Virus record (IMG/VR): IMGVR_UViG_3300021406_000015
Location: 1-53,213 of that record
Direction: 5' to 3' (one strand)
Origin: a virus
Lineage: Duplodnaviria > Caudoviricetes
DNA: 53,213 nt
Translations under genes and position numbers: made by a program
The notes under the pieces: generated by a model
Database searches by the model: none
Seen by the model: the letters and a program-made list of their open reading frames with translations, nothing else
What the model was told of the DNA's origin: nothing
Part shown: positions 19,219 through 19,415 of the stretch, piece by piece
Layout: the number at the start of each line of letters is the position of its first letter
Numbering within the stretch: the stretch's first letter is position 1

Positions 19219-19260
19219 CAAAACAAAACCCCCAGCTTTGCTTTCGCTCGGCTGGGGGCT
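19219..19260 (-). terminator. attenuator terminator upstream of tRNA block B
   Basis: AGCCCCCAGC...GCTGGGGGTT-TTGTTT. Confidence 0.8.
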
Positions 19261-19291
19261 TCTCTCATTTGCTACGTTGTAGCAGTTGAAT

Positions 19292-19375
19292 CTAAGCCGG
19301 GCCGCACGAAAGCGTATTACCCTGCGGTTGCGCTGGGGTAAACGTACGTGTCGAATTGGCTCGGTTAAATTTCAT
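19292..19375 (-). CDS. leader peptide B (MKFNRANSTRTFTPAQPQGNTLSCGPA)
   Basis: 27-codon ORF between promoter and terminator; codons match the downstream Asn/Gln/Gly/Thr/Ala/Phe/Pro/Arg tRNAs. Confidence 0.8.
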   Translation of the reverse strand: MKFNRANSTRTFTPAQPQGNTLSCGPA

Positions 19376-19387
19376 GTCGTTTTCTAC

Positions 19388-19415
19388 GTTATGACAAGTT
19401 GGCGCAGAATGTCAA
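19388..19415 (-). promoter_or_regulatory. promoter of tRNA block B
   Basis: TTGACA-16 nt-CATAAC with TG extension. Confidence 0.55.

Follow-up and report, generated by a model that had tools for sequence, protein, structure and literature searches.

The multivalent leaders of enterobacteria carry codons for several amino acids, namely Thr and Ile in thrL and Leu, Val and Ile in the ilvGMEDA leader, and pheM of Escherichia coli is the leader of the pheST operon for phenylalanyl-tRNA synthetase. The T-box riboswitch binds uncharged transfer RNA (tRNA) directly, with no ribosome and no open reading frame (ORF), and has a conserved specifier loop and a T-box motif. For the tRNA genes of phages, roles in codon-usage compensation, in sustained translation as the host decays and in escape from tRNA-cleaving defences have been proposed, among others. 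Here we describe element B of a 53,213-base IMG/VR virus record (the window, i.e. the whole stretch of DNA that was analysed; estimated completeness 63%), which comes from an uncultured soil phage. The element consists of a short leader ORF and an intrinsic terminator ahead of a block of eleven tRNA genes, and it bears on the question of why phages carry such genes and when they express them. Most probably it is a ribosome-mediated (leader-peptide) transcription attenuator that gates this block and senses the supply of the block's own tRNAs.

The organization of element B resembles that of thrL and ilvGMEDA: a short ORF close to the promoter contains codons for several amino acids, an intrinsic terminator comes next, and the 5' arm of this terminator may instead pair with a segment that a ribosome at the leader stop would cover, so that stalling would favour read-through. 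Unlike these leaders, element B is phage-borne, has no Shine-Dalgarno sequence and stands ahead of tRNA genes and not of genes for biosynthetic enzymes. Its leader lists about eight amino acids, mostly one to four times each, whereas thrL and ilvGMEDA hold runs of one to three. With pheM and pheST it would share a regulated product that is part of the translation apparatus. It would also resemble pheL of pheA, where attenuation answers to the level of charged tRNA and not to the amino acid only: the passages on pheR in PMC3082878 describe a 6- to 7-fold de-repression of pheA in E. coli upon loss of this one tRNA-Phe gene. Unlike element B, both pheM and pheL sense one amino acid and have an enzyme as the target, and their loop is not closed on tRNA supply. 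By analogy, the logic of element B would be closest to that of pheST and pheA, and its mechanism most like that of the thr and ilvGMEDA leaders. A Phe-rich leader ahead of the E. coli tRNA-Phe genes was considered as a precedent and discarded: the pheV and pheU promoters of K-12 abut the tRNA, with no leader ORF and no terminator.

As in the T-box, a choice between terminator and anti-terminator would couple the status of tRNA to translation-related genes, but element B holds an ORF whose composition tracks the tRNA set. An Rfam cmscan of positions 8000-27000 (E up to 1) gave no hit within 19206-19415, either to an amino-acid operon leader family (Thr, His, Trp, Leu and similar leaders) or to a T-box. 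No account of leader-peptide attenuation of tRNA genes was found in a full-text literature search, outside which lie subscription journals and supplements. What is new here is trp-type attenuation, as we infer it from the features given below, applied to tRNA genes, with a leader listing the amino acids of the block.

All features of element B are on the minus strand. The -35 hexamer TTGACA (19410-19415) starts 5 nucleotides (nt) after the stop codon (19422-19420) of a gene for a protein of 277 amino acids (277-aa; gene at 19420-20253), and the candidate -10 (19386-19392) is either ATAACG with a 17-nt spacer or TAACGT with an 18-nt spacer. The leader ORF (19292-19375) starts 10-11 nt downstream of the candidate -10. 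This distance is constant in the window and in the two relatives G002 and G003 introduced below, which suggests that the mRNA of leader B is nearly leaderless. The ORF has 27 codons, MKFNRANSTRTFTPAQPQGNTLSCGPA, begins with ATG AAA and ends with TAG (19294-19292). Thus the promoter followed by an ORF, as described in the sequence-only reading that preceded this work, is present, although the -10 is poor. Codons 3-21 (19313-19369) form the putative sensor stretch; 18 of these 19 codons specify amino acids for which the downstream block has tRNAs (Phe, Asn, Arg, Ala, Thr, Pro, Gln and Gly), exactly as had been counted before, and the exception is Ser.

Three further segments of the leader are involved in predicted pairings. 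Region 1, TTTAACCGAGCC (19358-19369), pairs with the 3' end of the ORF in the full-length fold and has CCGAGC in common with region 3. The leader-internal hairpin TTACCC/GGGTAA (19317-19341), which had also been noticed earlier, is formed in the minimum-energy fold and recurs in the 15 suboptimal structures of lowest energy that were printed, out of 2378 lying within 3 kcal/mol; RNA polymerase may pause at this hairpin. Region 2, GCCCGGCT (19295-19302), is located directly 5' of TAG and would be the 5' strand of the anti-terminator. Its partner, region 3 with the sequence AGCCGAGC (19246-19253), takes in the top 3 base pairs (bp) of the terminator 5' arm and 5 loop bases. The proposed complementarity of these two regions in 7 of 8 positions was verified.

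The intrinsic terminator (19217-19259) is formed by an 8-bp G+C-rich stem, followed by TTTTGTTTTGGG. Its arms are GCCCCCAGC (19259-19251) and GCTGGGGG (19236-19229), the T-run is TTTTGTTTT (19228-19220), and an inner GC/GC stem is closed by GAAA; the folding energy is -21.8 kcal/mol. The terminator is separated from the leader TAG by 32 nt, and the T-run from tRNA-Asn (19205-19131), the first gene of the block, by 12 nt. Since this strong terminator ends 12 nt upstream of tRNA-Asn and leaves no space for a promoter, expression of tRNA-Asn needs read-through. Neither the promoter nor the terminator of element B was listed by a consensus scan, the former because its -10 matches the consensus in only three of six positions and the latter because of its 14-nt loop.

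Contigs from soil metatranscriptome libraries (X3 and X4) cover parts of the tRNA array; neither ends nor strand nor level can be read from them, and they may derive from DNA. An X3 contig covers 19186-19508 without mismatch, across the terminator and beyond the promoter of element B. Its source may be RNA that reads through from the upstream gene, or else DNA that was carried over, and it is taken here as presence and not as expression because contigs show neither ends nor levels. One X3 contig has small insertions, TG behind 19214 (just after the T-run) and T behind 19241 (in the loop of the terminator); this probably reflects strain variation, both arms of the terminator being intact.

The window contains 32 tRNA genes on the minus strand between 9.4 and 25.4 kb (ARAGORN, default settings). 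They form three blocks, A, B and C, and each block is headed by a hairpin with a T-run. Block B (16212-19205, minus strand) is composed of 11 tRNA genes (ARAGORN, Rfam) in the order Asn(GTT), Gln(CTG), Gln(TTG), Gly(GCC), Thr(TGT), His(GTG), Ala(TGC), Phe(GAA), Pro(TGG), Arg(ACG) and Thr(TGT), with two HNH-endonuclease ORFs in between (17966-18517 and 17176-17595, minus strand; PHROGs). The corresponding set of amino acids is A, F, G, H, N, P, Q, R and T. Counted over the 26 codons after ATG, 21 codons of leader B fall in this set, which makes up 0.48 of the codon usage of the phage (binomial p 7e-4). At the level of codons, 18 of 26 are readable by the anticodons of the block under standard wobble rules, where the background is 0.33 (p 2e-4). 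The six frames of the window contain 645 short ORFs of 18-45 codons; of these, only leader B attains its own amino-acid fraction, and its codon fraction is attained by 2. The match is specific for the block: the 21 codons for block B compare with 8 and 9 for blocks C and A, respectively. Leader B is the sole ORF between the promoter and the terminator. Two finer points of the sequence-only reading were borne out by this analysis, namely that the leader contains both CAA and CAG and that codons readable by 9 of the 10 distinct anticodons of the block occur in it, His being absent.

The case for the codon match becomes much stronger with the two sister elements, both also on the minus strand. 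Element C (25386-25549) comprises a promoter (25549-25521), a leader (25510-25439, MKLLSLLSSSLYSCSLSGMEARM) and a terminator (25415-25386), and precedes tRNA genes in the order Leu, Cys, Leu, Leu, Leu, Ser, Ser, Ser, Tyr, Met, Asp, Glu, Glu and Thr. Its promoter and terminator are both on the list of the consensus scan, as is the terminator of element A. The latter element (11275-11394) has a Shine-Dalgarno sequence with a GTG start, a leader running from 11394 or 11385 to 11323 and ending in QIRTSKSMTGTKRVWGVVS, and a terminator at 11296-11275; the order of its block is Trp, Met(CAT), Lys, Lys, Arg, Arg, Val, Thr, Ile and Gly. No Shine-Dalgarno sequence was found before leader C. Own-block codons account for 18/22 in leader C (3 and 5 for the other two blocks) and for 15/19 in leader A (7 and 8), so the table of leaders against blocks is strongly diagonal across A, B and C. 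Leaders A and C end in TGA and TAA.

Related loci were found through the 277-aa protein, 3 by the single protein and 55 by alignment. Three of these loci belong to virus records that are complete or almost so and carry large tRNA arrays, namely G001 (102 kb), G002 (138.5 kb) and G003 (132.7 kb). In G002 and G003 the three blocks are present as in the window, in identical order and each with a leader and a terminator. The B leader of G002, MTRFHSDFPATAATQPQGNRSPEMGSQ, has 20/26 own-block codons and stops with TAG; that of G003, MTPCHTAAPACAPAPHANFAQGTAV, has 21/24 and stops with TAA. The promoter string TTGACATTCTGCGCC is identical in element B of the window and of G002, TTGACA is kept in G003, and the orthologous -10 hexamers, TACCGT and TAAAGT in G002 and G003, are found at equal spacing. 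In the alignment the three B peptides have little in common beyond QPQGN, whereas the amino-acid composition of the block, the promoter and the layout are kept. Unlike leader B of the window, the B leaders of G002 and G003 contain His codons. Block B of G003 is without tRNA-Arg(ACG) and its leader is without an Arg codon; this tRNA is present in the window and in G002, and the leaders there use CGA, CGT or CGC. In G002 an HNH-like ORF (L064:3710-4321) is inserted between terminator B and tRNA-Asn.

The comparison with G001 says most, since the division of its tRNAs into blocks differs from that in the window, and the leaders match the new partition. The positional counterpart of leader B (after the homologue of the 277-aa gene and before tRNA-Asn), MTFNTMSVIKRNRRINVRWRGC, stands ahead of tRNAs for Asn, Met, Ile, Val, Ile, Lys, Lys and, four times, Arg, and these very residues abound in it; 14/21 of its codons belong to its own block, compared to 6 and 1 for the other two. 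The second leader, MIRFTHSDCPTPQAATGTWQGEFERIAG, with 19/27 own-block codons versus 4 and 1, precedes Glu, Glu, Gln, Gln, Asp, Trp, Gly, Gly, Cys, Thr, Thr, Ala, Pro and Pro tRNAs. The stop codons of G001 leaders are TGA and TAA. A third frame (L006:2183), rich in Leu, Ser and Tyr, precedes Leu, Leu, four Ser, Tyr and Leu tRNAs; it has no stop before tRNA-Leu and the hairpin lies inside the ORF, and it was used for the count of composition only and excluded from the folds. Altogether, each of the 12 leaders in the four genomes matches its own block best of three. The binomial p is below 0.005 for 10 of the 12, and the weakest is leader A of G003 (0.067). The match statistics, the specificity for the own block, the retention in G002 and G003 and the shift in G001 all support the reading of the element as a codon-matched leader-peptide attenuator, and the original observation on element B is confirmed.

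Beyond these four genomes, Lys/Tyr-rich leaders with a terminator stand ahead of Lys/Tyr tRNAs in two distant AT-rich phages (L023 and L032). No codon-matched leader was seen at the heads of arrays read in L012, L008, L048, L049, L039, L024, L030, L019 and L054; the positions read in these nine loci are internal block starts or heads cut by the end of the locus and have no bearing on element B.

The alternative structures were examined by folding. In the full-length minimum-energy fold of element B, region 1 is paired with the 3' end of the ORF, and the internal hairpin and the terminator are formed. The effect of a ribosome was modelled with a transcript cut just before the 3' arm of the terminator and with the ribosome footprint masked. 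With the A site at codons 3-20, leader positions 85-91, located directly before TAG, pair with five of the nine nucleotides of the 5' arm (19259-19251). With the A site at codon 23 or further, no base of the 5' arm pairs with the stop-proximal segment. The same holds for the other elements: in 11 of 11 folded, the 5' arm of the terminator has a partner at or beside the leader stop codon, and this pairing is lost once the ribosome covers the last codons. The arms and the partners of the B orthologues differ, and each partner fits its own arm (GCCCGGCT/AGCCGAGC in the window, GGGGTC/GGCCCC in G002 and GTCGGGG/CCCCGGC in G003); these stretches are contained in the best duplexes of the energy test described below. 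The placement of the codons fits the geometry of an attenuator as well, own-block codons occupying 155 of the 195 positions upstream versus 38 of the 66 that make up the last six codons (Fisher p 0.001, a descriptive value since the elements are not independent).

On the basis of these features the following mechanism may be proposed. Transcription would begin at the TTGACA promoter, or arrive from the upstream gene, and enter the 27-codon leader, where codons 3-21 would be decoded almost entirely by the tRNAs encoded directly downstream. If decoding is fast, the ribosome would reach TAG and cover GCCCGGCT, the terminator would form, and transcription would stop at the T-run, 12 nt before tRNA-Asn. 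If one of these tRNAs is scarce or uncharged, the ribosome would stall within codons 3-21 and leave GCCCGGCT free to pair with AGCCGAGC; this pairing would weaken the hairpin, and the polymerase would continue into the eleven tRNA genes. The new tRNAs would relieve the stall, providing a negative feedback on tRNA supply. Elements A and C would act likewise on the other two blocks. Translation of the leader, the switch and the feedback are the steps which we infer.

A more far-reaching version joins several claims and is, taken jointly, doubtful. According to it, each block would be a self-closing circuit in which the leader serves as a checklist of the codons of the block and failing tRNAs are replaced, and the phage would thereby monitor the decoding capacity of the host by codon class, e.g. 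after the action of host anticodon nucleases or during tRNA depletion in infection. In addition, element B would be wired to A and C through UAG: amber-suppressor tRNAs from these blocks would let the ribosome proceed to a UGA that lies 5 nt ahead of the terminator, where it would keep the terminator open, and a cascade between blocks would result.

Several observations weigh against the attenuator. The candidate -10 of element B is a poor match to TATAAT (3/6), and no Shine-Dalgarno sequence was found before the ATG of leader B, although one is present in 38/55 genes of the window. A His tRNA is encoded in block B, yet the leader contains no His codon. The twelve leaders are not independent and amount to about five or six independent cases. 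The pairing of regions 2 and 3 overlaps 3 bp of the 8-bp core stem, and the CCCCC/GGGGG helix can still form; in the control with shuffled leaders the pairing of element B was equalled by 17 of 200 (2 to 48 of 200 for the other elements). In the control of duplex energy, a fraction of 0.108 of 500 dinucleotide shuffles of the window next to the stop codon was as good or better; the values for the 11 elements range from 0.074 to 0.95, with no single element significant, in a test that is weak because the shuffles keep G-runs. Hence the judgement of the sequence-only reading that the anti-terminator of element B is the weakest of the three is fair. The state without a ribosome is ambiguous as well: the cut transcript keeps the anti-terminator pairing, while the full-length fold gives the region 1/region 2 pairing and the terminator. 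Finally, amino-acid starvation would trip the switch likewise, though new tRNA would be of no help then. The architecture of the anti-terminator is therefore supported for the class and not for element B alone, because the position of the pairing recurs in 11 of 11 elements, yet the controls for element B on its own are not significant.

The modest pairing in element B gives some room to a different output: the leader would sense the codons of the block, but not through a switch between regions 2 and 3. A ribosome following closely behind the polymerase, or passing UAG with the help of the CUA-anticodon tRNAs of the phage and stopping at UGA, could block the hairpin; alternatively, stalling could alter the access of Rho or the processing of the precursor by RNase. 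The stop codon of leader B does fit such a scheme. It is TAG, as in G002, and two tRNAs with the anticodon CTA (amber suppressors, labelled Pyl by ARAGORN) are encoded on the minus strand in block A (9967-10042) and block C (21147-21220). Read-through of TAG would end at an in-frame TGA (19267-19265) located 5 nt before the terminator, where a ribosome would cover its 5' arm. However, the B leader of G003 ends in TAA, leaders A and C end in TGA and TAA, and those of G001 do the same, which means that stop-codon read-through cannot be the general mechanism. Moreover, TAG is the ordinary stop of 13 of 67 genes here, so that together with the TGA and TAA ends of the other leaders any amber input would be at most an addition to element B. 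A fast ribosome that blocks the hairpin would also raise the output of tRNA under good decoding, which is the reverse of what a useful feedback should do, and the complement to the terminator arm next to the stop codon in 11/11 elements speaks for an RNA switch. We consider this kind of output quite unlikely. As to a genome-wide recoding of TAG, no sign of it was seen: of the 53,213 bases, 44,958 lie in genes under the standard code, and no more than 2,676 are gained (47,634; 72 genes) if TAG is taken as a sense codon.

It is also conceivable that there is no regulation at all, the hairpin being a leaky constitutive terminator or an element of processing or stability that heads the tRNA precursor, and the short ORF a small gene of its own or an untranslated stretch whose composition has a cause other than sensing. 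The missing Shine-Dalgarno sequence and the poor -10 would agree with this, and so would the contig over 19186-19508: if it is RNA, at least some molecules come from upstream and read through the terminator. But that contig may equally be carried-over DNA, and it gives neither ends nor levels. The peptides, on the other hand, are not conserved as proteins, and the absence of regulation would leave without a reason the own-block amino acids in 12/12 leaders and a composition that tracks the re-partitioned blocks. Accordingly, we regard constitutive behaviour as unlikely. The least probable explanation is a coincidence produced by composition and by the choice of the ORF and of the block limits after the sequence had been seen. 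Taken alone, a leader at 81% against a set that makes up 48% of codon usage gives a p of only ~7e-4, and the frame and the limits were indeed chosen in this way. However, the stretch from promoter to terminator offered a single ORF to choose, this ORF comes first among the 645 short ORFs, and the effect is seen in each of the eleven further leaders when the same rule sets their limits, those of G001 with its different blocks among them. Coincidence is thus close to refuted, and a leader-peptide attenuator responding to the tRNAs of block B is left as the preferred explanation.

If this is true, element B would represent a direct and testable sensor-and-feedback circuit for tRNA supply and would extend the classic trp-type attenuator from amino-acid synthesis to the tRNA pool. 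Regulatory units in phage tRNA arrays could then be annotated by a simple signature, a short ORF from whose composition the tRNAs behind it can be predicted, and synthetic biology would gain small sensors that report the decoding speed of particular codons. With their two partitions of blocks, the four genomes compared here constitute a natural set of swaps.

No close relative of the window was found among deposited phages: positions 17000-21000 gave no match by blastn against 50,697 deposited phage records, and a search of IMG/VR for the exact sequence of terminator B found none. With a lower ARAGORN threshold the number of tRNAs rises to 36, the additions being Ser(CGA), Ser(GCT), Leu(CAA) and one tRNA with a CAT anticodon. 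A further tRNA-like match of Rfam at 24446-24529 (39.9 bits with the tRNA-Sec model, below the gathering score of 47) has an anticodon loop that reads as Ser(TGA). Besides the two HNH ORFs of block B, ORFs of the HNH or endonuclease VII type are found among the tRNA genes at 10033-10836 and 15070-15510 (minus strand). Homing endonucleases may be a cause of the reshuffling of tRNA blocks between relatives.

Between the terminator and the first tRNA, the string TCTTTGAAA occurs in element A of the window (~11255-11270, minus strand) and of G002 (L064 ~10020-10035), and the string TCTTTGACAATCGAAAT occurs twice in G003 (L066:1440-1475 and L067:5535-5565). No usable -10 follows these strings, and they may be a processing site. 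In two distant phages (L019:100-300 and L054:45-300) about 200 nt lie between the terminator and the first tRNA; both stretches contain CTGACAGGCA, CGTGAG and GGAAGG and could be a separate structured RNA. The tRNA array of G002, the closest relative, contains a transfer-messenger RNA (tmRNA; L008:4991-5376, minus strand), which scores 75.2 bits with the Rfam model tmRNA_permuted and 52.3 bits with tmRNA, both above the gathering score. In the window the only tmRNA signal is a 17.8-bit fragment at 15710-15739.

The 277-aa protein encoded upstream of element B matches phrog_7371 (function unknown) and contains a MIDAS-like DRSGS motif, as read by eye. At 18 of its 55 IMG/VR relatives (loci L008-L062) at least one tRNA lies within 3 kb, and at 13 at least three; examples are L010, L012, L019, L023, L024, L030-L032, L048, L049 and L054. 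This suggests a recurrent link between the 277-aa protein and phage tRNA regions. Another gene (13526-15052, minus strand) encodes a 508-aa protein that matches phrog_850 ('RNA-binding protein', E 6.7e-11); towards its C-terminus it also has a weak match to VWA, which does not reach the Pfam cut-off. About 600 nt upstream of its start codon at 15052, at 15644-15773 (minus strand), there is an Rfam match to YrlA (Y RNA-like) with 32.9 bits, which does not reach the gathering score of 69. Judged from these matches, the protein and the Y-like RNA look like a phage-borne Ro60/Rsr-like pair placed between blocks B and A. The region of the Y-like RNA is covered by metatranscriptome contigs (15553-16323).

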